Notes under the pieces: model-generated | The model's database searches: none | Told to the model about the DNA's origin: nothing | The model's input: the letters and a program-made list of their open reading frames with translations, nothing else | Shown here: in pieces, positions 4,766 to 58,014 of the stretch | Layout: the number at the start of each line of letters is the position of its first letter | Position numbering within the stretch: position 1 is the stretch's first letter | Source: Thermoanaerobaculia bacterium | GTDB lineage: Bacteria > Acidobacteriota > Thermoanaerobaculia > UBA5066 | NCBI GenBank assembly: GCA_963719225.1 | Contig: CAVRAY010000002.1 | Span: 192,001 to 256,000 of the forward strand | Reading direction: 5' to 3' | DNA: 64,000 nt | Program-made: the position numbers and the translations under genes

Positions 4766-6693
4766 GGGAAGTACCCGCGGATCGTCTTCGCGCGCAGCTT
4801 CGGATTCCTGAGCTTCACCTCGATCGCGCGGAACTGGTTCTCGCCCTTCGAGGAATTCGTGAGATATCGCAGGAAATACTGAGAGCGCAGCTCCGTCTCG
4901 ATCTTCCGGTAGACCTCCGCCAAAGCCGACGCCTTGCCGATGAAGAACGCCTCGGCTCCCGTGTCGACGGCGAGCTCGCTCATCTTCGCCTTGATGCCGA
5001 AATCGAGGACCGAGAGGTTGAGGCCGATGAAGTAGATCGGCACGCCGGCGGAGCGCGCGTAGCGGCGCAGCGTTCCGTAGTCCGTCCAGGAGTGGTTGTC
5101 GTCGCCGTCCGTGAGGACGACGATCGCCTTGCGCCCGGGCAGCGAGCGGAACTGGTAGAGCGCCATCACGACGGCGTCGTAGAGCGCGGTCTCCCCGGAG
5201 GCGCGCGTCTCGGCGATGGCGCGCTCGAGGTCCGTGGACTTGTGCGTGAGGGACGCGAGGAGAGCGGGACGCTCGCGGAACTCGATGACGAAACCCTGGT
5301 CCTTTTCCTTCGAGACCAGCTTCTGCGCGAATTCGGAGGCCGCCTGGTGGACGAGAGGCATGGCGTCCTTCATCGAGCCCGATCCGTCGATCACGATCCC
5401 GAGGGAAAGGGGGAGAGACTCGGCGAACTCGAAGCTGGAGAGGTCCTGCGTCACGCCGTCCTCGAGCACCGTGAACTCCTCGCGCGGGAGGCCCTTCACG
5501 AGGCGGCCGTCGGAGTCGAAGACCGAGACCGGGAGCTCGACGAGGTTCACCTCGACCTTCGTCATGAAGCGCGATTCGCCCTTCAGGAGCTTGAGATCGG
5601 TGAACTCTTTCCCGTCGGCGTCCGTCGCGGTCGCGCGCATGAGCGTGGCCTTCTGGATCTTCGCCACGGGCACGGTGACCGTGAACGGCGGCTCGGTCCA
5701 CTCCTTCAGCATCGTGTCATCCAGCCAGAGCTGAAGCTTCTTCGCGGCGCCGCCCGCGATGGAATGCAGGGCGACTTTCAGCTCCACGGTGTCCCCGGCG
5801 GCCTTCTGTTTCGGCAGCTCGAGGATCCGGACCGCGAGACGCGAGTCCTTCTCGTTGATCGCCCAGGCGTCGGCGTCCACGAAGTTGCCCTGGACGTCGA
5901 AGCCGAGGACCTTGAGCGTCTGCTTCTTGGGGATCTTCCCGAGGTCGAGCTCGACGGTATAGGGTGCGCGGTTCTTCACGAGGATCTTCTTTTCCCCGAG
6001 GTAGAACTCCACGCGCTTGACGGGCTCCTTCACCTCGCACGCGATCCTCAGGAGGCCGACGGGCACCTCCTGCTCCGGCGCCAGGATCTTCACGAAACCC
6101 GAGGCGCCGGCCGCGAGAGGAGGACGGTTCTCGCTCTCGAGGATCACGGCGGCGGCGGTCGGCAGCCCACCGTCCGCCCCGGCGTCCTCGGCACGGAACT
6201 CGGCCGACATGGCGGGCACCATGAGCGAGATCGCGCGCGTGCCCAAGAGCACTCCCGCGACGCCCTCGAGCCGGAACTGGATGTTGACCGTGCCGGGGGC
6301 GAGAGCGCGAAGAAAGGAGATCGCCACGGGCTTCGACGCGTTCGTCACGTCCGTCGACGAAAGGTCGATGTCGACGGGCACCCGGAAGCTCTCGACGGCC
6401 TGACCCTTGTCGTCCGTCACGTCTCCTGCCAGAAAGAACGAATACACGCGCGGCTGCGCGTTTCCCGCCCCGCGGAGATCCCCCCGGCTGACCGAGAGCG
6501 TGAACTTGACGGCCGTCTTCCCCCCGGTTTTCCCGAGATACTGTTCGCGCACGTCGATCGGGATCGAGATCCCCCGTGCCTGGAGCTGGGTCTTCTGGGC
6601 CCCTCCGGGAGGGCCCGATTGGGGCCGCGCAGGAGGAGCCGAGAGGAAGGCGGCGAGGCCGATGAGCGCGAAGGCGCGGACCCGCTTCGTCAT
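4762..6693 (-). CDS. secreted VWA-domain protein (Acidobacterial VWFA-related type) with Ig-like repeats
   Basis: Signal peptide MTKRVRAFALIGLAAFL; MIDAS DGSGSM; TALYDA and LTDGDD motifs. Start moved to ATG 6693. Confidence 0.88.
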   Translation of the reverse strand: MTKRVRAFALIGLAAFLSAPPARPQSGPPGGAQKTQLQARGISIPIDVREQYLGKTGGKTAVKFTLSVSRGDLRGAGNAQPRVYSFFLAGDVTDDKGQAVESFRVPVDIDLSSTDVTNASKPVAISFLRALAPGTVNIQFRLEGVAGVLLGTRAISLMVPAMSAEFRAEDAGADGGLPTAAAVILESENRPPLAAGASGFVKILAPEQEVPVGLLRIACEVKEPVKRVEFYLGEKKILVKNRAPYTVELDLGKIPKKQTLKVLGFDVQGNFVDADAWAINEKDSRLAVRILELPKQKAAGDTVELKVALHSIAGGAAKKLQLWLDDTMLKEWTEPPFTVTVPVAKIQKATLMRATATDADGKEFTDLKLLKGESRFMTKVEVNLVELPVSVFDSDGRLVKGLPREEFTVLEDGVTQDLSSFEFAESLPLSLGIVIDGSGSMKDAMPLVHQAASEFAQKLVSKEKDQGFVIEFRERPALLASLTHKSTDLERAIAETRASGETALYDAVVMALYQFRSLPGRKAIVVLTDGDDNHSWTDYGTLRRYARSAGVPIYFIGLNLSVLDFGIKAKMSELAVDTGAEAFFIGKASALAEVYRKIETELRSQYFLRYLTNSSKGENQFRAIEVKLRNPKLRAKTIRGYFP

Positions 6694-6749
6694 GAGGCCA
6701 TCGTATGCTGTCTTTCTCAAGCGACACATCCCCCGTTCAGGAGGTTTAA

Positions 6750-8195
6750 ATGCAAGTTCCCTTCCGCCGCACCGCCGGGGCGCTTCTCGGCCTCGCTCTT
6801 CTTGCGGTTCCGGCCCCGGGAAACGCCGCCTCGCCGGCCGGGGCCGACACGTCAAGCGCCTGGCTGGACTCCACGTCCGCACGCTGGAACGAAATCGCCG
6901 AGAAGATCTGGGGCTTCTCCGAGACGGCGCTCCAGGAGACGAAGTCGTCCGCTCTCCTCGCCGACACTCTCGAAAAGGAAGGCTTCAGCGTGACGCGCGG
7001 CGTCGCGGGAATGCCGACGGCGTTCGTGGCTTCAGCGGGAGCTGGCGCGCCCGTCATCGGGGTCCTCGCCGAGTACGACGCGCTGCCCGGCCTTTCACAG
7101 ACGGCAGGCGCGCCGAAGAAGTCGCCGCTCGCCTCCGCGCCAGCTCCCGGCCACGGGTGCGGTCACAACCTCCTGGGCACGGCGGCAGTCGCGGCCGCCG
7201 TCGCGGCGAACCGCACCCGCGTCGCGGGGAAGCTTCCCGGCACGATCCGCGTCTTCGGCACGCCGGCCGAAGAGCAGCTCCTCGGCAAGCCGTTCATGCT
7301 CAGGGACGGCTCTTTCGCGGGAACCGATGCCGTCCTCGCCTGGCACCCAGCGGACGCGAACTACGTGTGCACGAAGCCTTATCTCGCGATCACCGCACTC
7401 GACGTGGAGTTCTTCGGAAAGACGGCGCATGCCGCGATGAACCCCTGGCTCGGGCGGAGCGCGCTCGACGCCGTCGAGCTGTTCGACCACGCCCTCGCGC
7501 TCATGCGGGAGCACGTGCTCCCGACCGCGCGCCTCCATCGCGCGATCAAGAGTGGCGGCCTCGCGGCGAACATCATCCCGGACTATGCCCGCGTCCAGTG
7601 GTTCGTGCGGGACGAGAACGGAGAACGCGTGAACGAGATGGTCGGGCGCCTGAAGAAGGCAGCCGAGGGCGCGGGTCTCGCGACCGAGACGACGTCGAAG
7701 GTGAGCCTTCTCGCCTCGACGCGCGAGCCGCTCTTCAACGCCGAGCTCTCGAAGGTCCTCCAGAGACATCTCGCCCTCGTCGGGGCGCCGAAGTGGGATG
7801 CCGCCGATGTCGCGCTCGCGCGCGGTGTCCAGAAAGAGGTCGGCATTCCCGAGGCCGGCCTTTCGGACACGGTCCTCCCATATGGTCCCGGGCACGGGTC
7901 CGGGGCTTCGTCGGACGTGGGCGAGGTGAGCGCGGCATTGCCGGTCGCCGAGCTCGCGGTCGCGACGGGGGCCGTGGGCCAGCCGTGGCACCACTGGGCC
8001 GTGACGTCCTGCTCGGGGCACGCGCTCGGCCGAAAGGGCATGCTCGTCGCGGCCAAGGTCCTCGCCGCGACGATGACGGATCTCCTGGGCGATGCCGCGA
8101 CCGTCGCCGCCGCGAAGGCCGAGTTTCAGAAGGCGACCGCCGGCAAGCCCTACGTCAGCCCGCTCGCGAAGGACGCGGTGCCGAAGATCTACTGA
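6750..8195 (+). CDS. M20 amidohydrolase (AbgB-like), secreted
   Basis: EYDALPG, GHGCGHNLLG, GTPAEE and SSDVGEVS motifs; signal peptide. Confidence 0.9.
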   Translation: MQVPFRRTAGALLGLALLAVPAPGNAASPAGADTSSAWLDSTSARWNEIAEKIWGFSETALQETKSSALLADTLEKEGFSVTRGVAGMPTAFVASAGAGAPVIGVLAEYDALPGLSQTAGAPKKSPLASAPAPGHGCGHNLLGTAAVAAAVAANRTRVAGKLPGTIRVFGTPAEEQLLGKPFMLRDGSFAGTDAVLAWHPADANYVCTKPYLAITALDVEFFGKTAHAAMNPWLGRSALDAVELFDHALALMREHVLPTARLHRAIKSGGLAANIIPDYARVQWFVRDENGERVNEMVGRLKKAAEGAGLATETTSKVSLLASTREPLFNAELSKVLQRHLALVGAPKWDAADVALARGVQKEVGIPEAGLSDTVLPYGPGHGSGASSDVGEVSAALPVAELAVATGAVGQPWHHWAVTSCSGHALGRKGMLVAAKVLAATMTDLLGDAATVAAAKAEFQKATAGKPYVSPLAKDAVPKIY

Positions 8196-9364
8196 TCGCC
8201 GGGGGCGTCCACCGCGCGAAGCACGCCGTAGTCGACGAGCTTCCGGACGAGCTGCCGTCGCAGGACGAGCCCGTGGTCCTTCTTGATCGCCCTGAGCGCG
8301 TCGGGCACCTTCGAGCCGTCGAAGGCGGGAAGCGCCGGGAGGAGCACGGCGGGGGCATCGATGGGGTCGTAGGCGCTGTAGGTGGCCAGGCGAACGGTCC
8401 CATGTCCGACGCCAATGACGCTGAGGTTGCCGACCTCGAGGCGCTCCGGAAGTGCGTCGCTGGTCACCGCGTCGTAAGCAGCGCGTGCGAGCTGCGCGTG
8501 GAGAGCGACGGTCGCACCTCCGATGCGCTCCACGGCCTTCCACTCCAGGTTCCGGACGATCGCGTCGCATTCGCGGTAGAGCTCCTGCTCGCGTCCGGCC
8601 CAGCTTCCCCAGAGGGACCTGTACCTCTCGGGGCTTACGGTGCCGTCGATCTCGTCGCCCTTGACGGCTTCCGTCCGCCTTTGTGATGGCGGAAGTTTGA
8701 GCGGAAAGTTCACGCGGAGCGCTGCGTGGTCGAAACCGAGGGTGACGAGGCAGTGGATCGCGAGGTTTTCCTCGATGGCCGTCAGCAGCTCCCTGGCCGA
8801 GTCCCAGAACCGCTTCGCCGTGTCCCCGCGCTCGTGCTTGCAGAACCAGGTCATGCAGACGGAATTGCGATGACGCCAGATCCCGCATTCGCCGCCGATC
8901 CGGTCTTCGAGGTAATAGGGGCAGAGCATCGCCTCGCTGTGGCCGAAGACCCCGTCCCCGTGGTCGTACAGGAGGTTGTACGCCCCGCCGGCGCCGACCC
9001 AGAGCGGCGTCACGCCGACTTTCTTTCCGATCCTCTCCACGACGCGGGCCCGCCCTTCGGCCATGTCGGGTGACCCGTCCGCCAGGATCGCCCCGACGAG
9101 AAAGTTGTGAAGCTTCGGCAGGTACGTGCAGCACTTCGTCTTCGGGTTGAAGTAGACCGCGTCACGCTCTCCGTCCGCGCCGCCGGACACGGGCAGCATC
9201 GCGCAGTTCTCGCACGTGGCGTGCGGCTCGGAGGGGATCTTGCCCCCGAGCGCCGCCTCGAGCCAGCGCGCGTGGAGCGGCGCCAGGCCCTTGGCGGGAG
9301 CGTCGGCGATAAAAGGGAGCCGGACCATGGGAGCCCTGGGGCGTGTCACCTGGTCATTGCTCAC
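8189..9364 (-). CDS. Cys-cluster (YkgJ/CxxCxxCC-like) protein with putative C-terminal RRE/PqqD-like domain; candidate peptide maturase, copy 2
   Basis: CENC...KCC...CPYY...CGIWRHRNSVC...FC pattern; C-terminus FDGSKVPDAL...LVRKLVDYGVL; about 85% identical (manual count) to 10618-11796. Confidence 0.75.
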   Translation of the reverse strand: MSNDQVTRPRAPMVRLPFIADAPAKGLAPLHARWLEAALGGKIPSEPHATCENCAMLPVSGGADGERDAVYFNPKTKCCTYLPKLHNFLVGAILADGSPDMAEGRARVVERIGKKVGVTPLWVGAGGAYNLLYDHGDGVFGHSEAMLCPYYLEDRIGGECGIWRHRNSVCMTWFCKHERGDTAKRFWDSARELLTAIEENLAIHCLVTLGFDHAALRVNFPLKLPPSQRRTEAVKGDEIDGTVSPERYRSLWGSWAGREQELYRECDAIVRNLEWKAVERIGGATVALHAQLARAAYDAVTSDALPERLEVGNLSVIGVGHGTVRLATYSAYDPIDAPAVLLPALPAFDGSKVPDALRAIKKDHGLVLRRQLVRKLVDYGVLRAVDAPGDQ

Positions 9365-9372
9365 TAATAGAT

Positions 9373-9522
9373 CTAGGGGGAGGCCTTGTCGATATGCTTG
9401 GGGATCGAAAGATCACCGTGGTCGACCCTCCCCCCGCGGACCTTCCCGCCCTTGGCGGGCTTGACGTCGAGGTTCTTGGCCATTCTCTTTTGAGCCTTAG
9501 GTTTCTCCTTCGCGATTTTCAT
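9373..9522 (-). CDS. double-glycine precursor peptide P10 (core RVDHGDLSIPKHIDKASP, Hcp-like)
   Basis: MKIAKEKPKAQKRMAKNLDVKPAKGGKVRGG|RVDHGDLSIPKHIDKASP; RBS AAAGGAG. Confidence 0.88.
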   Translation of the reverse strand: MKIAKEKPKAQKRMAKNLDVKPAKGGKVRGGRVDHGDLSIPKHIDKASP

Positions 9523-9539: not shown

Positions 9540-9686
9540 TCAAAGCTTCTTGACGCCGCCGCCGGAGCCCCCCGGCAGTTTGTCCATGCCGCCGCGGACC
9601 GCCCCGCCCCTGGACGGCTTGACCTCGAGGTCCTTGACGGTCTTCTTTCGCGAAGCCTTCGGGTTCTTCTTCGCAACCTTCTTCAT
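9540..9686 (-). CDS. double-glycine precursor peptide P9 (core MDKLPGGSGGGVKKL)
   Basis: MKKVAKKNPKASRKKTVKDLEVKPSRGGAVRGG|MDKLPGGSGGGVKKL; RBS AAAGGAG. Confidence 0.88.
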   Translation of the reverse strand: MKKVAKKNPKASRKKTVKDLEVKPSRGGAVRGGMDKLPGGSGGGVKKL

Positions 9687-9910
9687 GTCCTCGCTCCTTT
9701 CTTCCTGTGTCGGTCGTGGCCTGGCTTCGGCCTTCGCTCGGCCGGAGCATCCTTGAACGGCGGCTCTTCCTCTGTCTTGGGGATCGGGGGACGTTCACCA
9801 AAGACCGTCTTCTGTGCAGCGCCCCCCTTGGGGTCGTTTCGGGGGACGAGGTCCCTGAGGGGTACGAACCCCGGCGACGGCTCCTTCCTGCGGCGCCTTG
9901 GCTTCGTCAT
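9683..9910 (-). CDS. second-type precursor-like peptide Q2 (LRDLVPRNDPKGG leader)
   Basis: MTKPRRRRKEPSPGFVPLRDLVPRNDPKGG|AAQKTVFGERPP...; paralog of 12170-12394; stop overlaps P9 start (ATGA). Confidence 0.75.
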   Translation of the reverse strand: MTKPRRRRKEPSPGFVPLRDLVPRNDPKGGAAQKTVFGERPPIPKTEEEPPFKDAPAERRPKPGHDRHRKKGART

Positions 9911-9917
9911 GCCGGCT

Positions 9918-9988
9918 TCGATGTCGACGGGCACGCGGAAGCTCTCGACGGCCTGGCCGCGGTCATCCGCGCCCGAAAGGAAGAACGA
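9918..9988 (-). repeat. diverged 71-bp copy of an internal segment of the VWA gene (6365-6441)
   Basis: 37/38 nt identical over the first block; encodes SFFLSGADDRGQAVESFRVPVDI versus SFFLAGDVTDDKGQAVESFRVPVDI. Confidence 0.9.
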
Positions 9989-10106
9989 TTTGGGTTTGGC
10001 CGTAGCCCCCACGGACTGTCCCGCCCTTCGCGGGCTTGACCCCGAGGTTCTTCGTCGCCTTGGTAGTCCTTGACTTGGAGGCCGTCTCCCTCGGGGTCTT
10101 TTTCAT
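9963..10106 (-). CDS. double-glycine precursor peptide P8 (core YGQTQIVLPFGRG)
   Basis: MKKTPRETASKSRTTKATKNLGVKPAKGGTVRGG|YGQTQIVLPFGRG; RBS AAAGGAG. Confidence 0.85.
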   Translation of the reverse strand: MKKTPRETASKSRTTKATKNLGVKPAKGGTVRGGYGQTQIVLPFGRG

Positions 10107-10160
10107 GTCGTTTCTCCTTTCTTCCTTTTTCGGCCGTGAACGGGCTCGAGGGACGGTCGA

Positions 10161-10289
10161 CTATTTGGGCCAGTATCTCCCCCCCAGGCCTCCGCGGACG
10201 GTCCCGCCCTTGGCGGGCTTGACCTCGAGGTTCTTGGCCGCCTTCTTCTGAGAAGCCTTCGTGGCGCTTTTCTTCGTGGTCTTCTTCAT
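10161..10289 (-). CDS. double-glycine precursor peptide P7 (core LGGRYWPK)
   Basis: MKKTTKKSATKASQKKAAKNLEVKPAKGGTVRGG|LGGRYWPK; RBS AAAGGAG. Confidence 0.88.
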   Translation of the reverse strand: MKKTTKKSATKASQKKAAKNLEVKPAKGGTVRGGLGGRYWPK

Positions 10290-10377
10290 GTCGTCTCTCC
10301 TTTCTTCCTGTTTCGCTCGTGACCCTGTTTCGAGTGCTTGACGAGCATCCCATGTCGGAGGTGCATCATCTCGGGAT

Positions 10378-10554
10378 TCACTTGACCTTCGTGTTTATCG
10401 ACGCTGCAAGACTCGTGCGAACCCCGAGAGCTTGGAGCTCCACAGCGGTGGGACCTCCGCGAACATCGCCGCTCTTGTCGCGCCTGACCTCGAGATCCTT
10501 GACCGCCTTCCTGTGTGTACCCTTCCCTTCGCCTTTCTTCGTGGTCTTCATCAT
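10378..10554 (-). CDS. double-glycine precursor peptide P6 (core PTAVELQALGVRTSLAASINTKVK)
   Basis: MMKTTKKGEGKGTHRKAVKDLEVRRDKSGDVRGG|PTAVELQ...; RBS GAGGAG. Confidence 0.86.
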   Translation of the reverse strand: MMKTTKKGEGKGTHRKAVKDLEVRRDKSGDVRGGPTAVELQALGVRTSLAASINTKVK

Positions 10555-10617
10555 GTCGTTTCTCCTCTTTTCCTGTTCCAGTCGTGACCCGGCTTCTGCC
10601 TTCTCATCGAGTTCTGG

Positions 10618-11796
10618 TTAGACGTGCTCGTCTTCGGGGGCGTCCACCGCGCGAAGAACGCCGTAGTCGACGAGCTTTCGGACGAGCTCGAGGCTCAGGA
10701 CGAGCCCGTGGTCCTTCTCGATCGCCCGAAGGGCGTCACGCACCTTCGAGCCGTCGAAGGCGGGAAGCGCCGGGAGGAGCGCGGCGGGCGCATCGGTCGG
10801 GTCGTAGGCGCTGTACGTGGCCAGGCGCACGGTCCCATGCCCGACGCCGATGACGTTGAGGTTGCCGATCTCGAGGCGCTCCGGAAGAGCGGAACTCGTC
10901 ACCGCCCGGTACGCGGCGCGTGCGAGCTGCGTGAGGAGAGCGACGGTCGCGCCGCCGATCCTCTCGACGTCCTTCCACTCCATGTCCCGGACGATCCCGT
11001 CGCTTTGGAGGTAGAGCTCCTTCTCGCGTCCGGCCCAGCTTCCCCAGAGGGCCTTGTACCTCTCGGGGCTCACCGTGCCGTCGAGCTCGTCCCCCTTCAC
11101 GGTTTCCGTCCGCTGAGACTTCGGAACCTTGAACGGGAAATTGGTCCGGAGCGCCGCGTCGTCGAAACCGAGGGTGACGAGGCAGTGGATCGCGAGGTTC
11201 TCCTCGACGGCCATCAGCAGCTCGTTGGCCGAGTCCCAGAACCGCTTCGCCGTGGCCCCTCGCTCGTGCTTGCAGAACCAGGTCATGCAGATGGAATTGC
11301 GGTGACGCCAGATCCCGCAGCCGCCGCCCATCCGGTCTTCGAGGTAGTAGGGGCAGCGCATCGCCTCGCTGTGGCCGAAGACCCCGTCACCGTGGTCGTA
11401 CATGAGGCCGTACGCTCCGCCGGCGCCAACGGAGAGCGGCGTCACGCCGACCTTTCTTCCGATCCTCTCCAGAACGCGCGCCTGTCCTTCGGCCATGTCG
11501 GGCGCCTCGTCTGCGAGGATCGCGCCGACGAGAAAGTTGTGAAGTCTCGGCAGGTAGGTGCAGCACTTCGTCTTGGGATTGAAGAAGACCGCGTCCCGGG
11601 CCCCGTCCGCGCCGCCGGGCACCGGGAGCATGACGCAGCTCTCGCATGTGGCGTGGGGCTCGGAGGGGATTTTTCCTCCGAGAGCCGCTTCGAGCCAGCG
11701 CGCATGGAGCGGCGCCAGGTCCTTGGCGGCAGCGCTGGCGATGAAAGGGAGCCGGACCATGGGAGCCCTGGGGCGTGTCACCTGCTCATTGCTCAC
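10618..11796 (-). CDS. Cys-cluster (YkgJ/CxxCxxCC-like) protein with putative C-terminal RRE/PqqD-like domain; candidate peptide maturase, copy 1
   Basis: CESC...KCC...CPYY...CGIWRHRNSIC...FC pattern; paralog of 8189-9364; GTG start just after precursor P5. Confidence 0.75.
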   Translation of the reverse strand: MSNEQVTRPRAPMVRLPFIASAAAKDLAPLHARWLEAALGGKIPSEPHATCESCVMLPVPGGADGARDAVFFNPKTKCCTYLPRLHNFLVGAILADEAPDMAEGQARVLERIGRKVGVTPLSVGAGGAYGLMYDHGDGVFGHSEAMRCPYYLEDRMGGGCGIWRHRNSICMTWFCKHERGATAKRFWDSANELLMAVEENLAIHCLVTLGFDDAALRTNFPFKVPKSQRTETVKGDELDGTVSPERYKALWGSWAGREKELYLQSDGIVRDMEWKDVERIGGATVALLTQLARAAYRAVTSSALPERLEIGNLNVIGVGHGTVRLATYSAYDPTDAPAALLPALPAFDGSKVRDALRAIEKDHGLVLSLELVRKLVDYGVLRAVDAPEDEHV

Positions 11797-11804
11797 TAAT
11801 AGAT

Positions 11805-11942
11805 CTAGGGGGAGGCCTTGTCGATATGCTTCGTGATGAGAAGGTCGCCTCCGCGAACCGCTCCGCCCTTGCCTGGCTTGACGTCGAGGTCCTTGGCCGC
11901 CTTCTTGGCCTTCGAGGGGGTCTTTTTAGTGGTCTTCTTCAT
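11805..11942 (-). CDS. double-glycine precursor peptide P5 (core DLLITKHIDKASP, Hcp-like)
   Basis: MKKTTKKTPSKAKKAAKDLDVKPGKGGAVRGG|DLLITKHIDKASP; RBS AAGGAG. Confidence 0.88.
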   Translation of the reverse strand: MKKTTKKTPSKAKKAAKDLDVKPGKGGAVRGGDLLITKHIDKASP

Positions 11943-11993
11943 GTCGTTTCTCCTTCCTTCCTGTTTCAGTCGTGACCCGAACATGAAACGCAA

Positions 11994-12173
11994 TTAGTGT
12001 TTCCGCCATACCTCAATGACCACTTCCTTAATGTGCTCTCCCTTGATGGGAATGATGTCTCCGAGGCCATGCCCTCCACGGACCGTCCCACCCTTGGCGG
12101 GCTTGACGTCGAGGTTCTTCAGTGCCCTCTTGCGCGAGGCCTTCGCGGCGCTTTTCTTCGTGGTCTTTTTCAT
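11994..12173 (-). CDS. double-glycine precursor peptide P4 (core HGLGDIIPIKGEHIKEVVIEVWRKH, Hcp-like)
   Basis: MKKTTKKSAAKASRKRALKNLDVKPAKGGTVRGG|HGLGDIIPIKGEHIKEVVIEVWRKH; RBS AAAGGAG. Confidence 0.88.
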   Translation of the reverse strand: MKKTTKKSAAKASRKRALKNLDVKPAKGGTVRGGHGLGDIIPIKGEHIKEVVIEVWRKH

Positions 12174-12394
12174 ATCGGTTCTCCTTTCTTCCTGCTTCGG
12201 TCGTGACCCGGCTTCTGCCTTCGTTCCGCCGGAACATCTTTAAGGGGGTGGTTATCTTCTGTCTCGAGGATCTGGGGACGTTCGCCGAAGACCGTCTTCC
12301 CCGCCGACCCCCCCTTGGGGTCGTTTCGGGGGACGAGGTCCCTGAGGGCGACGAACCCGGGCGGCGTCTTCGTCTTGCGGCGGCCCTTCTTCAT
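12170..12394 (-). CDS. second-type precursor-like peptide Q1 (LRDLVPRNDPKGG leader)
   Basis: MKKGRRKTKTPPGFVALRDLVPRNDPKGG|SAGKTVFGERPQ...; start overlaps the GT41 stop and its own stop overlaps the P4 start. Confidence 0.75.
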   Translation of the reverse strand: MKKGRRKTKTPPGFVALRDLVPRNDPKGGSAGKTVFGERPQILETEDNHPLKDVPAERRQKPGHDRSRKKGEPI

Positions 12395-13896
12395 CACGCC
12401 GCCACCGGTGCGGGAAAGCAACCGCGTTCCTCGCCGCTGCCTCGCGCCTCCGAGCGAGATCGCGCGCGCCAGAGCTGGAAATAGACATCCTCGATGCAGC
12501 GCGCGAGCCTCGCGCAGTCGGTGACGGGCGAGGCCTTCAGGCGCTTCCTCATCGTGCGCCGTAGCTCTTCGCGTCTTTCCGCTTTTGCCGCCGATCCCCA
12601 TCGAATGGCCGTCTCGACGTACCCGCGCACGTCCCGGCTGACGAACTTCCCGAGACCGGCGTTTTCCAGCAGCGACGCGCTGGTACGCGAGATCCACCGA
12701 TCCCCCGAGAACGCGACGACCGGAACGCCCTGCCAGATGGCTTCCGTGGTCGTCGTGCCCCCGTTGTACGGGAACGTGTCGAGGGCGAGGTCGATGGCGT
12801 CGTAGTTTCGGAGGAAGTCGTAGTGCTCCGCAGGTCCGAGCATCGCCACGCGCTCGGGCTCGATGCCGCGCCGCGTGAATCGCGCGAGTGTGTGCTTGCG
12901 ATTGCCGGGGTCTCCCAGAGCGGCGTTGGCCAGGAGAAAGCGGCTTCCGGGGCATCGCCTCAGGATCTCGGCCCACGCGGCGACGACGCCGTCGTTGAGC
13001 TTGTAGAGCGACGAGAGACTGCCGAACGTGACGAAGCCGTTCTTGAGCGACGGCGGTGGCGCGACATCGGGGACCGGGTAATTCACCGCGAACGTCAGAG
13101 ACGAGAGCGGGAGCTCGACGACCTGCTCTCCATACCAGTGCTTCTCGCCGTCACGAATGAGCCAACGATCGCCGATCAGCGCATCGAACACGGGCAACCC
13201 GGAGGTTCCGAAGATGTTGAACCACGCCACGACGACTGGAGCCAGCCTCGTCGCGAACAGCGGCAGCCGGCCCACCCGACTGTACTGGTTGAGATCCACG
13301 AGAACGTCGAGCCCCGCCCGGGCGATCCGGCACGCGGCCGCGCCGTTGTCGAGGCGCGAGATGTCGTGGACGTGCGCCCCGCTCGTACGCGCCCGGCGGC
13401 GCACGGCGGAAGGGCGCGACGCGTCGGAAAAAAGGTGGACCTCCACCCTGCCGGGGTCGTGGTGATCGATCAGCCCCCACACCGGCTTCATCCAGTTGTC
13501 TGCGTGGAAAAACGACGAGACGTAGCCGATCTTTAGTACTTTCCTGACCGGGCTGCCGACGACGATCGCCCTGGCGGGCGCGACGGCTCGGGCGCGAACC
13601 GCGTCGCCCAGCGCGCGGCGGACCTTCAGGATCGCCGCGTGGTCCAGGCGCGGGTCGAACGGGGCGATCGTCGCGAGGAGCCGCTGGGCTCGGATGTCCG
13701 TACGAATCCGGAGAGACGCCCGAAGATGCCGGGTCGCCCTCTCGACCTCACCGAGCGCGAAGGTCGCCCGGGCGAGGTAATAACGTGCGGCCGCAGAATC
13801 CGGACTCGCCCGGACGGCCGATTCGAAGACAGCGAGGCCGCTCGCGTACTTGCCGGCCGCGAGCATGCGACGGCCATTCGGGCAGCCGGCGATCAT
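12394..13896 (-). CDS. TPR + GT41 (OGT/SPINDLY-like) glycosyltransferase
   Basis: N-terminal TPR; LKIGYVSSFF, DVLVDL, RLAPVVVAW, VTFGS..LYKLN and DLALDTFPYNGGTTTTEAIWQGVPVV motifs; ATG 13896 overlaps P3 stop (TGATG). Confidence 0.88.
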   Translation of the reverse strand: MIAGCPNGRRMLAAGKYASGLAVFESAVRASPDSAAARYYLARATFALGEVERATRHLRASLRIRTDIRAQRLLATIAPFDPRLDHAAILKVRRALGDAVRARAVAPARAIVVGSPVRKVLKIGYVSSFFHADNWMKPVWGLIDHHDPGRVEVHLFSDASRPSAVRRRARTSGAHVHDISRLDNGAAACRIARAGLDVLVDLNQYSRVGRLPLFATRLAPVVVAWFNIFGTSGLPVFDALIGDRWLIRDGEKHWYGEQVVELPLSSLTFAVNYPVPDVAPPPSLKNGFVTFGSLSSLYKLNDGVVAAWAEILRRCPGSRFLLANAALGDPGNRKHTLARFTRRGIEPERVAMLGPAEHYDFLRNYDAIDLALDTFPYNGGTTTTEAIWQGVPVVAFSGDRWISRTSASLLENAGLGKFVSRDVRGYVETAIRWGSAAKAERREELRRTMRKRLKASPVTDCARLARCIEDVYFQLWRARSRSEARGSGEERGCFPAPVAA

Positions 13897-14069
13897 CAGG
13901 ACTTGAGCCGCGTGTCGTGACTCCACTGAGTGCTTTGAATTTCGATCCAATCCGTGTGTCGCACCTCTCCACCACGGACCGTCGCGCCCTTGGCGGGCTT
14001 GACCCGGAGGTTTCGGACGGGCTTCTTGTGAGCGGCCTTCGGCGCGGTTCTCTTGGTTGTTTTCTTCAT
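13896..14069 (-). CDS. double-glycine precursor peptide P3 (core EVRHTDWIEIQSTQWSHDTRLKS, Hcp-like)
   Basis: MKKTTKRTAPKAAHKKPVRNLRVKPAKGATVRGG|EVRHTDWIEIQSTQWSHDTRLKS; RBS AAAGGAAG. Confidence 0.88.
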   Translation of the reverse strand: MKKTTKRTAPKAAHKKPVRNLRVKPAKGATVRGGEVRHTDWIEIQSTQWSHDTRLKS

Positions 14070-14129
14070 GACGTTCTTCCTTTCTCGAGCGGACTCTCAC
14101 TATGTCGACGGACCTCTTCATGCCCTGCT

Positions 14130-14254
14130 TCATTCCTGGATCTTGGTTATCGGCTTTTTCCCCCCGCGGACGGTCCCGCCCTAGGCGGGCTGACCTCGAG
14201 GTTTCGGACGGCTTTCTTTGCCTTCGACGCGCTTTTCTTCGTGGTCTTGTTCAC
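14130..14254 (-). pseudogene. degenerate precursor P2 (1-nt deletion plus TAG in leader; restored core KKPITKIQE)
   Basis: GTG NKTTKKSASKAKKAVRNLEV, then gtc a-g ccc gcc TAG ggc ggg acc gtc cgc ggg ggg. As written it reads ...SPPRAGPSAGGKSR* (stop at 14147). Confidence 0.75.
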
Positions 14255-14261
14255 GTCGTCC

Positions 14262-14399
14262 TCATTTCGGCCGCCTATCTGGGGGACCGGGGGGGAATCC
14301 TCCGCGGACCGACCCGCCCATGACGGGCTTGACCTCGAGGTCCTTGACCGCTTTCTTGTTAGATGCCTTCGAGGGGTTCTTCTTCGCAGTCTTCTTCAT
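14262..14399 (-). CDS. double-glycine precursor peptide P1 (core FPPGPPDRRPK)
   Basis: MKKTAKKNPSKASNKKAVKDLEVKPVMGGSVRGG|FPPGPPDRRPK; RBS AAAGGAG; first gene after the sigma54 promoter. Confidence 0.88.
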   Translation of the reverse strand: MKKTAKKNPSKASNKKAVKDLEVKPVMGGSVRGGFPPGPPDRRPK

Positions 14400-14440
14400 C
14401 TCTGTTCTCCTTTCTCGCGGTTTGTGACGGGCCCGAGCGA

Positions 14441-14456
14441 AGCAAGGGCCATTCCA
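14441..14456 (-). promoter_or_regulatory. sigma54 (-24/-12) promoter of the precursor array
   Basis: TGGAATGGCCCTTGCT matches GG-N10-GC; about 40 nt upstream of the P1 ATG; adjacent bEBP gene. Confidence 0.8.
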
Positions 14457-14591: not shown

Positions 14592-15566
14592 TCACTTCGT
14601 GTCGCTGAGCTTCCTCTCGAGTCGGGCGCGGGAGATGCCGAGGGCCCGGGCTGCTCTCGTCTTGTTGCCGGAGAGCTCCCGGAGGACCCGGCGGATGTGG
14701 TTCTGCTCGACGGTTCGGAGACTCAGGTCGGTTGCGGGTGCCGGCCGCGCGGCGGAAGGCGGCGCTCCGGAGACGCCGTCGTTTTGGATCGGGACTGAGA
14801 GTTCCTCGATCACGCTGCCCTCGGTCATCGCAATGGCGGCGTGAATGACGAGGTCGAGCTCGCGCAGGTTCCCGGGCCAGTGGTACGAGAAGAGAGCATC
14901 CGCGGCCTTCTGTGAGAGGCCGGAGATGGCCCGTCCCTGCGCATGGGCGGCGCGGCGGATCGAGGCCGCGACGAGCTCGCGCAGGTCGTTCGGCCTCTCG
15001 CGCAGCGGGGGAAGGGTGACCGTGAGCCCCGCGAGCCTGTAGAAGAGGTCGCTCCGGAACTGCTCGGTGTTCGCGAACCGCGCGAGGGCGTGGCGCGTGG
15101 CCGAGATCAGCCGCACGTCCGCCGTGCGCAGGCGCTCGGAGCCGAGCCTCTCGAATTCGCCGTATTCGACCGCCCTGAGGATCTTCGCCTGGGCGAGCGG
15201 GCTCATGTCGGCGATCTCGTCGATGAAGAGGGTGCCGCCGTCGGCGATCTCGAACTTGCCGCGCACCTGCCGCTTCGCGTCCGTGAACGCGCCTTTCTCG
15301 TGGCCGAAGAGCTGGCTGTCGAGGAGCGTGTCGGAGAGGGCGGCGGCGTTGAAAGAGACGAAGGGGGCCGACGCCCTGAGAGAGGAGTTGTGGATGGCCT
15401 GGGCGAGGAGCGTCTTGCCGGTGCCTGACTCGCCGAGGAGGAGGAGCGGAAGCTCGGTCCGGCAGGCGGCGCGCGCCACGTCGAGGCACCGCCGCATCGC
15501 GGCGTCGGCTGTTCGGAAGCTCTCGAGCGTGAGGCGTGCCGCGTCGGGGAAGCTCTCCCGGGTCAC
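14592..15566 (-). CDS. sigma54-dependent transcriptional activator lacking an N-terminal sensory domain (AAA+ and Fis HTH only)
   Basis: GESGTGKT, LFGHEKGAFTDA, LFIDEI, FRSDLFYRL, WPGNLREL and GNKTRAARALGISR motifs; GTG overlaps HlyD stop. Confidence 0.9.
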   Translation of the reverse strand: MTRESFPDAARLTLESFRTADAAMRRCLDVARAACRTELPLLLLGESGTGKTLLAQAIHNSSLRASAPFVSFNAAALSDTLLDSQLFGHEKGAFTDAKRQVRGKFEIADGGTLFIDEIADMSPLAQAKILRAVEYGEFERLGSERLRTADVRLISATRHALARFANTEQFRSDLFYRLAGLTVTLPPLRERPNDLRELVAASIRRAAHAQGRAISGLSQKAADALFSYHWPGNLRELDLVIHAAIAMTEGSVIEELSVPIQNDGVSGAPPSAARPAPATDLSLRTVEQNHIRRVLRELSGNKTRAARALGISRARLERKLSDTK

Positions 15567-16765
15567 CGGATGTTCTCCCTCAGCTGCCGGAGCGGCTCGA
15601 AAGCGTACTCGACGAGAGTCCGACGGCCGACGACGATCCGCGCCATCCCGCGCATTCCCGCGAGGAGCGGTTTGCGCTCTCCGTCCGCCGCGACGGTTTG
15701 CTCGTCCAGGTCGACGAGGACGGGAAATGTCGCCGTCTCGCGGATCCCGACGCCGGAGGGGCTGGCCCACCGGACTGTCCCTCCGCGGACGCCATAGCGC
15801 TGGTACGGGAACGCCTCGAGGAGGAGACGAACGTTCTGGCCGGGGCGAATCCGGGCGAGGCCGCCCTGCGGAAGTGCCAGCTCGGCCTGAAGAGTTTCGG
15901 CGGAGCACGCGACCTCCGCGAGGACGTCGCCGTCACGGACCACAGCTCCTGCCCGCCTCGCCGTGACCCCGAGAACCGTGCCGTCGCAGGGAGAGTTGAC
16001 GGCCAGCTCGTTTCCAAGCCCGTCTCCGCCTGCGGAGGGCGCCTCGCCGCTGAGCGCCCCGATCCTGATTCTCGCCTGCGCGATCTTCTCTGCGAGGACC
16101 CGCTCCTCCTCGTGGAATTCCATCCCTTTGGCCGCCTCGGTGTCGCGGAGCTTTTCGATGGCGCTTCCGGTCGCGCCCCGCTCGGCCTGGAGCTGCTCGA
16201 GCTCCATCACGGCCTGGCTGTGCCGGATCTGGGCGTCGGAGCGCTCGTTCAGGCTCGCGAGCCCCTGGTCGGCGAGCTTCTTCGCGCGCTCGGACTGCTC
16301 CTTCGTCAGGACGAGCTGCTCCCTTTTCAGGGCCAGCATCCGATCGAGATAATCCGCGCGATCGGCGAGGCTCCGGGCCTCCTCGCGCCTCGCGCTCGCC
16401 TCGCTTTCGAATCTCCTCCGGGCATTGGAAAGGCTCTCGGCAAGGCCGCCGAGACCGGCTTCGAGCGCCTTCCGCTCGGACGCCCGGTCGGCGAATTCCT
16501 GTGACCGGATGGCGAAGAGCCTCGCCCCCCTGAGCACCGGGCGCCCCTCGACGGCGAGCACGTCCGTGACGGTTCCCCCGCGCGGAGCGCGGACCGGGTC
16601 GGTGCCGCGCACCGGCACCAGCGCGAACGGGGCAACGACCGTCTCCGGGACCTTGACGGCCACCGAGACGATCGCCGCGGCCACGAAGAGAGCGATCAGG
16701 ATCCAGGCGAGGCTCCGCGCGGCGAACGGCGGCGGGTCGCTCGGGAGAAACGGCGTCTCGTCCAT
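15563..16765 (-). CDS. HlyD-family membrane fusion protein
   Basis: N-terminal TM, coiled coil, AFPYQRYG and LLAGMRGMARIVVGRRTLVEYAFEPL motifs. Confidence 0.92.
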   Translation of the reverse strand: MDETPFLPSDPPPFAARSLAWILIALFVAAAIVSVAVKVPETVVAPFALVPVRGTDPVRAPRGGTVTDVLAVEGRPVLRGARLFAIRSQEFADRASERKALEAGLGGLAESLSNARRRFESEASARREEARSLADRADYLDRMLALKREQLVLTKEQSERAKKLADQGLASLNERSDAQIRHSQAVMELEQLQAERGATGSAIEKLRDTEAAKGMEFHEEERVLAEKIAQARIRIGALSGEAPSAGGDGLGNELAVNSPCDGTVLGVTARRAGAVVRDGDVLAEVACSAETLQAELALPQGGLARIRPGQNVRLLLEAFPYQRYGVRGGTVRWASPSGVGIRETATFPVLVDLDEQTVAADGERKPLLAGMRGMARIVVGRRTLVEYAFEPLRQLRENIR

Positions 16766-19700
16766 CTAGATCCCCAGCTGCTGGCTCGAGAGGTAGTAGT
16801 AGAGGCCCTGGCGGTCCATCAGCTCGTCGTGGATCCCCTGCTCGACCAGACGCCCCTTCTCCAGCACGAGGATGACGTCCGCGTCGCGGATGGTGCTGAG
16901 CCGGTGCGCGATCACGAATGACGTCCGGCCTTCCAGAAGGCGGTCGAGGTTCTCCTTGACCGCCCGTTCCGACTCGCTGTCCAGTGAGCTGGTCGCTTCG
17001 TCGAAGATCAGCACCGGGGGCCGGTTGTAGATGGCACGCGCGATGGCGATGCGCTGCTTCTGTCCGCCGGAAAGAGCGAGGCCCGACTCGCCGACCCGGG
17101 TGTCGTAGCCCAGGGGAAACCTCTCCACGAACTCGTGGGCGCTCGCGACGCGGGCAGCCCAGAGAACCCGGTCCATGTCGGGCTCGGCGTCGCCGAAGGC
17201 GATGTTCCGCGCGATCGTCTCGTCGAAGAGGTAGTTCTCCTGGAGGACGAAGCCGACGCGCCGCCGGAGGTCCCTGTAGTTCAGCTTTTCGAGGTCCACT
17301 CCGTCGAAGAGGATCGATCCCTCGGTCGCCTCCAGGAGGCCGGAGAGGAGCTTGGCGAGCGTCGTCTTGCCGGAGCCGCTTCGGCCGACGACCGCCACCA
17401 TCTTTCCGGGCTCCACGTCGAAGGTGAGACCCTCGAGGATCTTCGGCGACTCGGGCCCGCCGTACTGGAAGCCGACGTTCCTGAGCGAGACCTTTCCCGC
17501 GAGCGTTCGGACCGGAATGAGCGCGGACCGGTCGTCGCCCTGCTCGGGGGTCTGCTCGAAGACGTCGTTCAGGCGGTCGAGGAGGACCGTGCCGTACTGG
17601 AGGTGGTCCCAGGTCGCGAGCAGGATCCCGATCGGCGCGTTCGCGAGGGCCACGAGCGCGTTGAACGCGACTAGCCCGCCGATGGTGAGCGACCCGCGCA
17701 TCACCTGGAGCGCGCCCGCCCACAGAAAGAGGGCGACCGAGAGGAAGCTCACGGCCTGGACGGCGCCCTCGTAGGTCATCACGGTGAAGTCGGCGCGAAA
17801 CTGCTTGCGGGCGAGGCCGAGGAACCGTTCCAGCATCAGCTGCCTGAGTGAGCCTTCGGCTCCGAGCGACTTGACGGTCTCGATCCCCTTGATGGTGTCG
17901 ATCTGATGGGCCGAATACTTTCCGAACGCCTCCTCGAGCGTGTCGAAGACGGGACGGAGCTTCCGCCGCGAATACCTCATCAGGAGGGCGTAGAGGGGAA
18001 CGGTCGCGAGGAAGACTCCCGCGAGGAGGGGGCTGTAGACGAACATCAGGACCACGACTGCGGCGAGCTGGGAGAGGGCGGTCAGGGAGGAGACCCCGTA
18101 CTGGACCAGGAGCTCGCGCACCTGACGGAGGCCCATGAGACGGCGCTGGATGTCCCCCGTCTTCCGCGTCGAGAAGTAGGACATCGGAAGCGACAGGAGG
18201 CGCCGGGTGATGAAGTCGAGCGTCGCGGCGTCGATCCGGACTGCGGCGAAGCTCAACAGGTATCGCTGCAGCACCATCGCCAGGGTCGAGAAAACGAGGA
18301 CGCCTCCCATCCCGAGGAGAAGAATCCGGAGCAACCCCTCGTCGCGCTCGACGAGAACCCGGTCGACGATCACCTGGCTGAAGACCGGCAGCACCATCTG
18401 CAGGATGCTGACGATCAACGCCAGAGCGGCCGCCTTCGCGAGGAGAGCGGCGTGCGGCCGAAAGAAGCGGGTGAGCCACGCGAAGCTCGAGCGTCCCACC
18501 GGAGCCTTCTCGAACGCTTCCGTGTAGTCGAAGAGGGCAGCGTAACCCGTCCACTCCTTCTCGACCTCTGCGCGCGGCAGGAGCCGGAGCCCGACCCCAG
18601 GGTCGGCCAGGCGAACGTCCGCCGGGTTCGTGTCGTAAAGGACGACCCAGTGGTTGCCGCCCCAGTGAAGGATGGCGGGGAGCGGCATCTGGTCCAGGTG
18701 CCGCGCCGAGGCCTTGACGGAGCGCGCGGCGAGTCCCAGCTCCTCGGCTCCGCGGCAGATCGCCCGGAGGCTCGTGCCGTCGGTCGATGTGAAGAGGAGC
18801 TGCCGGATCCGCGCCAGGCTCACCGCGCGGCCGAAGTGGCGACAGACCATCGCCAGGGAAGCCGCGCCGCAGTCCATCTCGTCGATCTGCCGGATGAAGC
18901 GGAAACGGCGGATCCGCCGAGCCTTCTTGGTGAACCGACCGTCCTCCGTCGCGAAGGGAGCGGCGGGCTCCTCGCCCGCTGCTTCGTCCGCCCGGCCGCC
19001 GGCATCCTCGTCGACTTGGTCCGGACCCACCTCCTCCACCGCCGCCTCCGCGGGCAGGAGCTCGTCGGCGAAGTCGAGCGGAACCGTCGCCTCCTTTCGG
19101 TAGTCGTACTGGGCGATACGCCGGCCGATGGCCGCGCGGAACCCGGGATGCGCCTCGGTGACGGCCCGGAAGGCGGTCGGGTGCAGGCTCAGGAGCCGAC
19201 AGGGCGTGACGGCCTCGACTGTGGCCTTTCTCGGTTCTCCCGTGAACGCCGAGATCTCGCCGAAGACATCGCCTTTCCGGAGGTAGGCGATGTTTCGCAG
19301 GTGCCCGTCCTCCTCGGCGAAGGCGCGAAGCCTTCCTTCCTCGACGACGAAAAGAGGTCCTTCCCCGTCTCCCTGTCGGAACACGGTCTCCCCTGCGGCG
19401 ACGGCGATCGTCTCGAACCGGTGGAGGAGCCCGGCGAGGACCGCTGGCGGAAGCGTGGAGAACGGGGTGTAGAGACGGAAGAGGTTCTGGAGGCTCCGGT
19501 ACCGGCTGTGGAGCTCCAGGCAGGTCCGGATCTCGGGATCGCCGGAGAGAAGCTCGTCGAAGGCGCTTCGGTCGAGCCGGAGGACCGTCGCGGCGCTCGA
19601 CGCGCGCACCGTGGCCTGCCGCCTGGCGGAGTCGTCCAGGAGACCCATTTCGCCGAAGCTGTCCCCGGGACGAAGCACGCCGAGCGAAACCTCCTCGCCC

Positions 19701-19948
19701 CGCTCTCCCATCTTCACCGCACGGGCTTTCCCGGCCACGAGGACGAAGAAGGCGTCCGCGGGATCGCCCTCGCGAAGGATGACGGCGCCGAAGGGAAAGG
19801 AGACGGGGACGAACTTCCCGGTCACCGCGGCGCGAGACGCAGGCGAGAGGAACTTCAGGAGCGGCAGGTCGTCGAGGAGGGCCCGCGCCGCCTCCACCTC
19901 CGGCGGGAGGGACGACTTCGCCTTGCTCTTCAAGGCTTCCATAGCCAC
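16766..19948 (-). CDS. peptidase-containing ABC transporter with two cNMP-binding domains, C39 peptidase, TMD and NBD
   Basis: FGEMGLL..RQATV and FGEISAF..RKATV (cNMP); QIDEMDCGAASL, LHWGGNHWVV, LADP (intact C39 Cys/His/Asp); GRSGSGKT, LSGGQKQR, IFDEATS. Confidence 0.94.
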   Translation of the reverse strand: MAMEALKSKAKSSLPPEVEAARALLDDLPLLKFLSPASRAAVTGKFVPVSFPFGAVILREGDPADAFFVLVAGKARAVKMGERGEEVSLGVLRPGDSFGEMGLLDDSARRQATVRASSAATVLRLDRSAFDELLSGDPEIRTCLELHSRYRSLQNLFRLYTPFSTLPPAVLAGLLHRFETIAVAAGETVFRQGDGEGPLFVVEEGRLRAFAEEDGHLRNIAYLRKGDVFGEISAFTGEPRKATVEAVTPCRLLSLHPTAFRAVTEAHPGFRAAIGRRIAQYDYRKEATVPLDFADELLPAEAAVEEVGPDQVDEDAGGRADEAAGEEPAAPFATEDGRFTKKARRIRRFRFIRQIDEMDCGAASLAMVCRHFGRAVSLARIRQLLFTSTDGTSLRAICRGAEELGLAARSVKASARHLDQMPLPAILHWGGNHWVVLYDTNPADVRLADPGVGLRLLPRAEVEKEWTGYAALFDYTEAFEKAPVGRSSFAWLTRFFRPHAALLAKAAALALIVSILQMVLPVFSQVIVDRVLVERDEGLLRILLLGMGGVLVFSTLAMVLQRYLLSFAAVRIDAATLDFITRRLLSLPMSYFSTRKTGDIQRRLMGLRQVRELLVQYGVSSLTALSQLAAVVVLMFVYSPLLAGVFLATVPLYALLMRYSRRKLRPVFDTLEEAFGKYSAHQIDTIKGIETVKSLGAEGSLRQLMLERFLGLARKQFRADFTVMTYEGAVQAVSFLSVALFLWAGALQVMRGSLTIGGLVAFNALVALANAPIGILLATWDHLQYGTVLLDRLNDVFEQTPEQGDDRSALIPVRTLAGKVSLRNVGFQYGGPESPKILEGLTFDVEPGKMVAVVGRSGSGKTTLAKLLSGLLEATEGSILFDGVDLEKLNYRDLRRRVGFVLQENYLFDETIARNIAFGDAEPDMDRVLWAARVASAHEFVERFPLGYDTRVGESGLALSGGQKQRIAIARAIYNRPPVLIFDEATSSLDSESERAVKENLDRLLEGRTSFVIAHRLSTIRDADVILVLEKGRLVEQGIHDELMDRQGLYYYLSSQQLGI

Positions 19949-57026: not shown

Positions 57027-57742
57027 GGAATCCAGTAGAGGATCCGCTTGCAGCTTTCGCAGAAGACCGTCTCTTTCGAAAGCCTGAGGTCCGAGAGAAG
57101 CTGCGGGCGAAGTCGTACGTGGCACGCCGAACAGGCGGCCGTCTGCGGCCCGACCATGTCGACGCGGGCCACCGCCACACCGGAGCGCTTGTGCCGGATC
57201 TGCTCGAACGTCTTGAGGAGCCGCGGCTCGAGCTCGGCCCTCAGGCTCTTGGCCCGCGCGTTCGCCCGGGCGATCTCGGCGTCGAGGACGGCCTGCTCCG
57301 CCCGCCACTCCTTCATCTGCTCCTCGTATCCCGCCTCTTCGGCGGGGAACTCCTCGTCACGCCGATCCAGCTCCGTCGAAGATCCGGCGACCGTCTCGTC
57401 GAGGGACAGGAGCTCGTCCTCCCGGGTCCTCACCTCGCGCTTGATCCCGTCGATCTCGTTCAGCAAAGCGCTGTATTCGCGGCTCGTCTTCACCGACTGG
57501 AGCTGCTGCTGGTACTTCTTGAGGTGCTCGTTGAGATCCTGGACTTCGCCGTCAAGCGTCTTCTTGCGCTCCTCGGCCTGCGAGAGGACGGCCCCGGCGG
57601 CTTCCCGCTGGCGTCGCGCGTCCCGGTAGGCCGCCTCGATGTGGACGAGGTGGTCCGGGGTCTTGTCCCGGCGTTCGGTTTTCTGGTGAACCTCGAGAAG
57701 AACCTCCTGGAGCAGAAAGAGCCTGTCGAGCGGACTCGTCAT
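57023..57742 (-). CDS. coiled-coil C4 zinc-ribbon protein (HP0958/CT398-like)
   Basis: VKTSREYSALLNEI; CSAC…CESCKRILY. Confidence 0.88.
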   Translation of the reverse strand: MTSPLDRLFLLQEVLLEVHQKTERRDKTPDHLVHIEAAYRDARRQREAAGAVLSQAEERKKTLDGEVQDLNEHLKKYQQQLQSVKTSREYSALLNEIDGIKREVRTREDELLSLDETVAGSSTELDRRDEEFPAEEAGYEEQMKEWRAEQAVLDAEIARANARAKSLRAELEPRLLKTFEQIRHKRSGVAVARVDMVGPQTAACSACHVRLRPQLLSDLRLSKETVFCESCKRILYWIP

Positions 57743-57789
57743 CGTCGCGCTCACCTCGTCATTCCGATCATCTGAACCCCCTAGAAACG

Positions 57790-57987: not shown

Positions 57988-58014
57988 CGACGGCCGAAGG
58001 GCAATGATAGCACG

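Follow-up and report, generated by a model that had tools for sequence, protein, structure and literature searches.

The window analysed here is a stretch of 64,000 nt from a Thermoanaerobaculia bacterium (GTDB UBA5066; assembly GCA_963719225.1, contig CAVRAY010000002.1, positions 192,001 to 256,000), numbered from its first base (G000:C2:192001-256000; G designates genomes, C contigs and L loci). Its minus strand carries a PpiC-like gene, a C39 ABC transporter, an HlyD adaptor and a sigma54 activator, followed by an array of genes for double-glycine peptide precursors. The array contains nine intact precursor genes (P1-P9) and a broken one (P1b), two genes for a second peptide (Q1 and Q2), a TPR-GT41 glycosyltransferase gene and two genes for a Cys-rich protein (X1 and X2). 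The precursor genes share a front part, generally a nucleotide block followed by a leader, and differ in the core behind it. Coordinates are listed in Table 1.

The initial annotation had placed a conserved block ahead of most P genes, with motif copies at seven sites and a 23-nt identity between two of them. The motif or a variant was present at all seven sites, positions 10581-10603 and 12200-12222 were identical over exactly 23 nt, and a full block copy lies ahead of P3-P8, six of the nine intact precursors; the copy of P1 is weak, and P2 and P9 have a purine-rich ribosome-binding site (RBS) only. Also as described there, the C-termini of Q1 and Q2 translate the block. It makes up the last ~17 codons of Q, whose stop codon overlaps the start codon of the following gene. 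A repeat finder returned six copies of a 143-nt unit, 68-85% identical to the reference, and the nine intact and one broken precursor genes share a unit of block, RBS and leader of ~130-150 nt. The proposed constant unit of about 130 nt is real as a shared unit but is not near-identical; the leaders in the window are 58-84% identical in DNA.

The left edge of this unit is variable. Block copies without a Q gene retain a Q tail of 8, 14, 16, 16, 37, 40, 42 or 49 nt in the window and of 13-66 nt at L030, L109 and L111; elsewhere the whole Q gene is kept. A hidden Markov model (HMM) of the block, trained on the array's own copies, matched seven places at E<=0.0015 (next E=2.4), none of which lies outside the array in this genome of 4.75 Mb; the bare 9-mer GGGTCACGA has 89 copies in the genome, four of them inside the array. 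Among 96 loci fetched with X, the same model gave good matches at L030, L109, L110 and L112 and a weak one at L111 (5/96), which are the five closest relatives by X identity. Five distant loci do have Q-like genes, with unrelated tails. The Q-like GG peptides that accompany these distant clusters (L035, L039, L053, L057 and L058) begin with the conserved motif ..KGG-x(3-6)-[VIL]FG, have tails that vary freely and form a second, conserved peptide class. Among eight intact Q genes the proportion of synonymous differences (pS) was 0.21 inside the block and 0.28-0.43 elsewhere (pairs not independent), a lowered value that would be compatible with an embedded RBS, gene conversion or a cis-element; on this basis, a regulatory role of the block is possible. 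An RNA structure for the block was considered and rejected, as no consensus pairs were found in 20 copies and single folds were weak and inconsistent.

The right edge, in contrast to the left one, is base-exact. The abrupt loss of similarity after VRGG reported in the initial annotation was confirmed, identity being at chance level from the first base onwards. Averaged over all pairs of 30 units from four loci, identity was 1.00 for the first two positions of the R-G-G codons; it dropped to ~0.26 immediately behind GG and was 0.23-0.41 at each of the 18 bases that follow. The wobble positions of the leader end were free (identity 0.28-0.44), so that V-R-G-G is conserved as protein and not as a DNA site. 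The boundary was also seen in metagenomes: at least 38 of 308 contigs (four metagenomes, four studies) stop matching at 10188/10189, the GG end of the P6 leader, and continue into dissimilar sequence (agreement 0.43-0.69). Since these contigs mix paralogues and species, they document the boundary and not strain turnover. Like a double-glycine leader/PCAT export cluster, the array has leaders ending in GG, with conservation stopping there, and a linked C39 ABC transporter with HlyD.

We compared array contents across species, as no sequencing run in the search covered half of the array; no RNA run containing it was listed either, which is not evidence about expression. L109, with the gene order of the window from dus to the VWA gene, has three precursors, one Q and one X; L030, the closest homologous locus, has 15 precursors and two broken ones, six Q and two X. 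Precursor number therefore varies between orthologous loci (3, 9 and 15), in line with the recombinational expansion suggested earlier, and among close relatives neither a static array nor loss of the motif was found. A leader HMM search of G000 gave no further copy beyond the array, and G017 had 13 additional leader matches at four other places.

Core swapping, the second part of that suggestion, is supported by sister leaders with unrelated cores. At L030, leaders 9070 and 9632 are 92% identical and sisters in the leader tree (99/96), with unrelated cores (p=0.84); the same holds for leaders 7189 and 9857 (92%; 99/90; p=0.83). Three related GGWD cores are borne on leaders just 74-78% identical and, over 435 pairs, leader identity was 0.76 for related cores versus 0.74 for unrelated ones. 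The L109 gene that occupies the slot of P3 has the leader (96%) and the downstream spacer in common with it; the two cores diverge after a shared GGAGAG, past which the L109 core follows positions 6-26 of the tube protein Hcp and the P3 core matches Hcp 76-89. In P0249, GGTVRGG is repeated within the core itself.

One core could be traced to DNA of another gene, taken up behind the leader. Among ten post-GG segments, only that of P7 has a match in the genome, in a VWA gene 3.5 kb away (52 nt at 88%, 68 bits, E=1e-12; five shuffles reached at most 33 bits). Upstream of these 52 nt the match goes on in the VWA frame, interrupted by two short deletions. The 9-mer at the P7 leader end has a single match of at least 8/9 in the 1929 nt of the VWA gene, 60 nt upstream of the piece versus 46 nt in P7, where a crossover would need it. 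The P7 piece agrees with some relatives' VWA alleles at 64/71 positions and with the resident allele at 60/71; being slightly nearer to the former, it may come from a foreign or old donor.

To characterize the cores more generally, we scored each core with a profile of 131 full-length Hcp proteins and compared the score with those of its own shuffles (p<=0.01). The set comprised 91 unique cores from X-retrieved loci; cores under 5 aa and duplicates were dropped, loci found by Hcp searches were excluded to avoid circularity, and some precursors, such as the first one of L109, were missed by the leader filter. Hcp-like segments were found in 35/91 cores, including P2, P3, P4 and P9, and in none of the 91 reversed cores. 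Such cores occur in 16 of 30 loci and together span 147 of the 162 profile positions. Pfam named T6SS_HCP for 14 of 85 cores (those under 8 aa dropped), its six other matches being scattered. A second core set gave 23/56, or 19/50 among the new ones. The nearest Atlas neighbours of P9 are clusters of 52-62 aa with partial Hcp annotation. No core holds a full-length tube-protein domain; fragments only were seen. In addition, 41 five-mers recur in at least three of 141 cores, compared with at most one in shuffles, a count which related cores inflate. Pfam did not confirm a likeness to gp19, to Flp pilin (PTAVE cores) or to DUF1559 (PAVQK cores) suspected for some of the remaining cores, which is therefore a lead only.

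Six syntenic core pairs of L035 and L053 gave pS 0.30 and a proportion of non-synonymous differences (pN) of 0.12 (p=3.5e-5), and 16 hand-picked core pairs a ratio of non-synonymous to synonymous substitution rates (dN/dS) of 0.30. The cores are inherited, slot-conserved and, by these values, under purifying selection, unlike neutral spacers; the repeat/spacer-like array of the initial annotation is not supported in this respect.

Full-length Hcp and TssC were looked for in G041 (99% complete) and G051 (96%) and found in neither, while 12 and 7 partial Hcp matches, respectively, were present. G000 has genes of a type VI secretion system (T6SS), with four hcp-like genes; at G000:C1:3152913-3153762 one TssC gene is split across several frames, through breakage or sequencing indels. 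In G017, a second array (L214 6450-14100, G017:C28) has ten leader matches, with an IS element and a gene for a Ser/Thr kinase-TPR protein lying between them and a resolvase beside the array; three of its seven tested cores are Hcp-like at p<=0.01. A lone precursor lies directly upstream of an orphan Hcp-like gene (L217 6878-7650, G017:C29), and two satellite precursor loci (L215 6335-13481 and L216 6290-16845) lie 7-9 kb from gp19-like tube genes, with GT41 and epimerase at one and a JmjC enzyme at the other. In G004, an orphan Hcp (L128 ~1450-1950) has an N-terminal extension that is signal-peptide-like by eye; TssC was not found in that genome.

In the model of X2 (pLDDT 91), residues 304-391 aligned with TigE (Z 8.1, root-mean-square deviation 3.1, 86 aligned), followed on the same segment by MccB (Z 7.5), MibB, PbtF, TbtB, NisB and TbiB1. 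At these middling Z-scores, X is predicted to contain the fold of a recognition element (RRE) of peptides that are made on ribosomes and modified after translation (RiPPs). A Foldseek search with X gave no match at E<=0.001; the Atlas gave YkgJ as a lead only (0.81), and the Cys-rich part was without clear match. The predicted RRE would be a reason for leader constancy beyond export.

The sigma54-type variant at 14441..14456 (Table 1) matches a single site across the genome, and similar sites occur at L030, L109, L111 and L035. No terminator-like site was found on the coding strand, and no sigma70-like promoter. One 151-nt contig covers 11713-11863 with one difference, so that the short P4 core and its stops are unlikely to be an assembly error. 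Approximately at the P4/X1 (11783-11828) and P9/X2 (9351-9396) junctions, 46 bases are identical, core-shortening stops included; this identity, despite X1 and X2 being only 85% identical in protein, may possibly be due to gene conversion. Elsewhere in the genome, a low-complexity poly-A/K stretch (G000:C1:~57600-61900) resembles an assembly artefact.

Table 1. Features of the array and its surroundings (window coordinates)
Feature	Coordinates	Strand	Remarks
PpiC-like peptide-maturation protein	19930..20928	-	Rotamase_2 E=1.2e-5; TIGR04500 E=7e-8, below cut-off
Peptidase-containing ABC transporter (two cNMP domains, C39 peptidase, permease, ATPase)	16766..19948	-	PF00027, PF03412, PF00664, PF00005
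HlyD-type adaptor	15563..16765	-	PF13437 E=9e-17
Sigma54 activator (AAA + Fis HTH), approximate start	14592..15560	-	PF00158 E=1e-58, PF02954
Putative sigma54-type -24/-12 promoter-like site	14441..14456	-	
P1 precursor, Pro-rich core, weak block	14262..14399	-	related core in L030
P1b, broken precursor, leader frameshifted	14150..14254	-	
P2 precursor, RBS only	13896..14069	-	core resembles Hcp profile 21-36, p=0.007 vs shuffles
TPR + GT41 glycosyltransferase	12394..13896	-	PF13844 E=2e-37
Q1, second GG-leader peptide	12170..12394	-	last ~17 codons are the block; stop overlaps P3 start
P3 precursor	11994..12173	-	core 3' half resembles Hcp 76-89; departs from L109 orthologue after common GGAGAG
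Block copy ahead of P4, 37 nt	11943..11979	-	
P4 precursor	11805..11942	-	core resembles Hcp 56-68; stops shorten core relative to L109
X1, Cys-rich protein	10618..11796	-	X2 paralogue, 85% aa
Block copy ahead of P5, 49 nt	10555..10603	-	holds the 23-nt exact repeat
P5 precursor, PTAVE-type core family	10378..10554	-	4/141 cores start PTAVE
Block copy ahead of P6, 42 nt	10290..10331	-	
P6 precursor, 8-aa core	10161..10289	-	leader end at 10188
Block copy ahead of P7, 40 nt	10107..10146	-	
P7 precursor	9963..10106	-	core is VWA-derived DNA read out of frame
Captured VWA-gene piece	9918..10015	-	9918-9969 at 88%; weaker match to leader-end 9-mer, 10007-10015
Q2 peptide	9683..9910	-	tail is the block ahead of P8
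P8 precursor, Gly-rich core	9540..9686	-	
P9 precursor, RBS only	9373..9522	-	core resembles Hcp 51-68; PF05638 E=0.0018; p=0.003
X2, Cys-rich N-terminal part, predicted C-terminal RRE (res. 304-391)	8189..9364	-	
Donor-segment homologue within VWA gene (4762-6882)	6365..6476	-	microhomology 6468-6476

Hypervariable cores behind an invariant leader have been described before (PMC2887384, PMC10783134, PMC3062557). The NHLP/Nif11 precursors (Haft et al. 2010, PMC2887384) likewise have a Gly-Gly leader, a hypervariable core, many paralogues and a PCAT with HlyD, and are retailored from larger proteins via intragenic recombination. However, it is the leader that is borrowed from another protein there, whereas cores are borrowed here. 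The present leader is of a Lys-rich type of 30-34 aa without family match: NHLP or Nif11 models in Pfam and NCBIfam matched none of the nine precursors, and TIGR03796 scored below its cut-off (529 vs 853). No LanM or YcaO/cyclodehydratase was found among the cluster proteins, to which that search was limited, and the nine window cores contain no Cys. Prochlorosins (PMC10783134) resemble the array as peptide libraries with constant leaders and diverse cores, for which recombination and indels are invoked, but they are lanthipeptides made by ProcM and, in the available text, their cores are not presented as pieces of known proteins. In cyanobactins (PMC3062557), hypervariable core cassettes are also exchanged in a constant background; those cassettes are shorter than 30 bp, within one precursor and between flanks that are ~100% identical, whereas whole genes form a diverged array here. 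As for Hcp/TssD (PF05638), the cores match segments of 9-32 aa, fragments too short for the Hcp fold and placed behind an export leader. In the literature searched, which included few subscription papers, no description of Hcp-fragment cores or of leader-end capture was found.

Taken together, these results lead us to favour, with a probability of about 0.62 for the genetic mechanism, an array of double-glycine precursor genes in which block and leader provide the homology for ordinary recombination. Homologous recombination within block and leader would duplicate units and reshuffle cores, and microhomology at the GGTVRGG codons would let in new DNA, occasionally grafting a gene piece behind VRGG. 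Selection on the RBS, on stop-start coupling and on recognition by RRE and C39 would set the edge. Constancy of the front part would follow from the RBS and the stop-start overlap that it provides, and from the need of the C39 peptidase, and probably of the RRE of X, to read the leader; the edge at GG would be sharp because this selection ends there. More tentatively, persisting cores would mostly be Hcp segments, exported and perhaps modified by X and GT41.

Several observations weigh against this interpretation. One capture only has a donor at the DNA level, and the leader-end microhomology rests on that event, with a chance of roughly 2% by estimate. The Hcp-like cores of the window gave no match to the DNA of the genome's own hcp genes, and donor spot checks in G017 (2.4 kb of array) and G041 (7.4 kb), with 40 candidates scored each, gave none that was clear. 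At different loci a given slot holds cores of one family (Hcp 47-73 before X, WI-type before GT41), which indicates that swapping is slow. The leader tree is short, with 102 columns and 6 of 27 branches starred. Five of the nine window cores are not Hcp-like, the profile behind the second core set included core columns, and the dN/dS pairs were chosen by hand. Finally, resolvases and IS elements flank two G017 satellite loci.

Among the alternatives, plain duplication of units in tandem, with cores later altered by indels and point changes, the edge due to selection only and no core exchange or capture, agrees with the free wobble positions at the leader end, with slot-conserved cores and with P4, which point changes and stops set apart from the orthologue in L109. 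Indel-driven core diversity is moreover the mechanism proposed for prochlorosins (PMC10783134). Yet plain duplication can produce neither the VWA piece of P7 nor a pair of sister leaders whose cores match separate parts of Hcp, and we consider it unlikely.

Alternatively, an ancestral fusion of the leader with full-length Hcp may have been trimmed by repeated deletions, later capture being incidental. The tiling of 147/162 Hcp positions, the cores that start near the Hcp N-terminus (several) or finish at the C-terminus (5/35) and P3, which resembles an internal Hcp deletion, all fit such trimming. No leader with full Hcp was found among 59 profile matches or four longer ones, a weak test; by eye, the cores resemble several Hcp subtypes, and P3 would require two independent deletions from the long ancestor. 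This makes a trimmed fusion quite improbable.

Integrons, CRISPR arrays, shufflons and diversity-generating retroelements (DGRs) also show constant/variable alternation and variable array length, as seen here. In contrast to these systems, no dedicated enzyme, no fixed left boundary and no near-identical or structured repeats were found, and the cores appear to be under purifying selection. Recombinase, Cas1 and reverse transcriptase (RT) were absent among the 45 window ORFs scanned (partly chosen by a codon filter, five unnamed). The sole PF00078 (RT) match of the genome lies at C2:869 kb, ~670 kb from the array, and this lone RT (L156 1126-2634, at the G000:C2 contig end) we take, by its look, to be of the group II intron type. 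An integron-, shufflon-, CRISPR- or RT-like machinery dedicated to inserting cassettes, be they cores or units, either at the leader end or at GGGTCACGA could claim the exact right edge, several left edges clustered at 35-49 nt, a weak P1 block starting near the predicted sigma54 start site and the resolvases near the two G017 satellites, but with no fixed left edge, diverged repeats (58-84% identical), no local enzyme and no block in distant clusters of the same architecture it is very improbable. The role of GGGTCACGA as a recombination site, raised in the initial annotation, is not supported either: the left edge varies, the block is a Q tail running over the next start codon and it was found only in close relatives. 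RNA-templated duplication from the sigma54 start site was likewise rejected, since many block edges lie upstream of that site and, at L109 and L111, the units nearest the promoter have no block.

If ordinary recombination did shape the array, its use to the bacterium is the least certain step. Exported cores might act as mimics, signalling about or interfering with the type VI or other contractile-tube machines of neighbours, and for such an Hcp-mimic role our confidence is low. A broader and still more speculative proposal, doubtful in our view, is a natural peptide-display library, in which leader ends would scavenge fragments of other genes via microhomology, selection would retain those copying the tube protein of injection machines, and the secreted, perhaps modified Hcp mimics would jam, decoy or report a rival T6SS; it would also cover genomes without a detectable T6SS of their own.

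Ideas on the origin of hypervariable RiPP cores are usually difficult to test, since the source of a core can rarely be recognised. Among the cores studied here, one was traced to a neighbouring gene, junction included, and roughly 40% to Hcp, which makes the birth and exchange of cores accessible to measurement. Should the peptides prove to target type VI or contractile tubes, they would represent a novel type of signal or counter-measure between bacteria, and X would be an uncharacterised family of leader-binding enzymes, found in several phyla.

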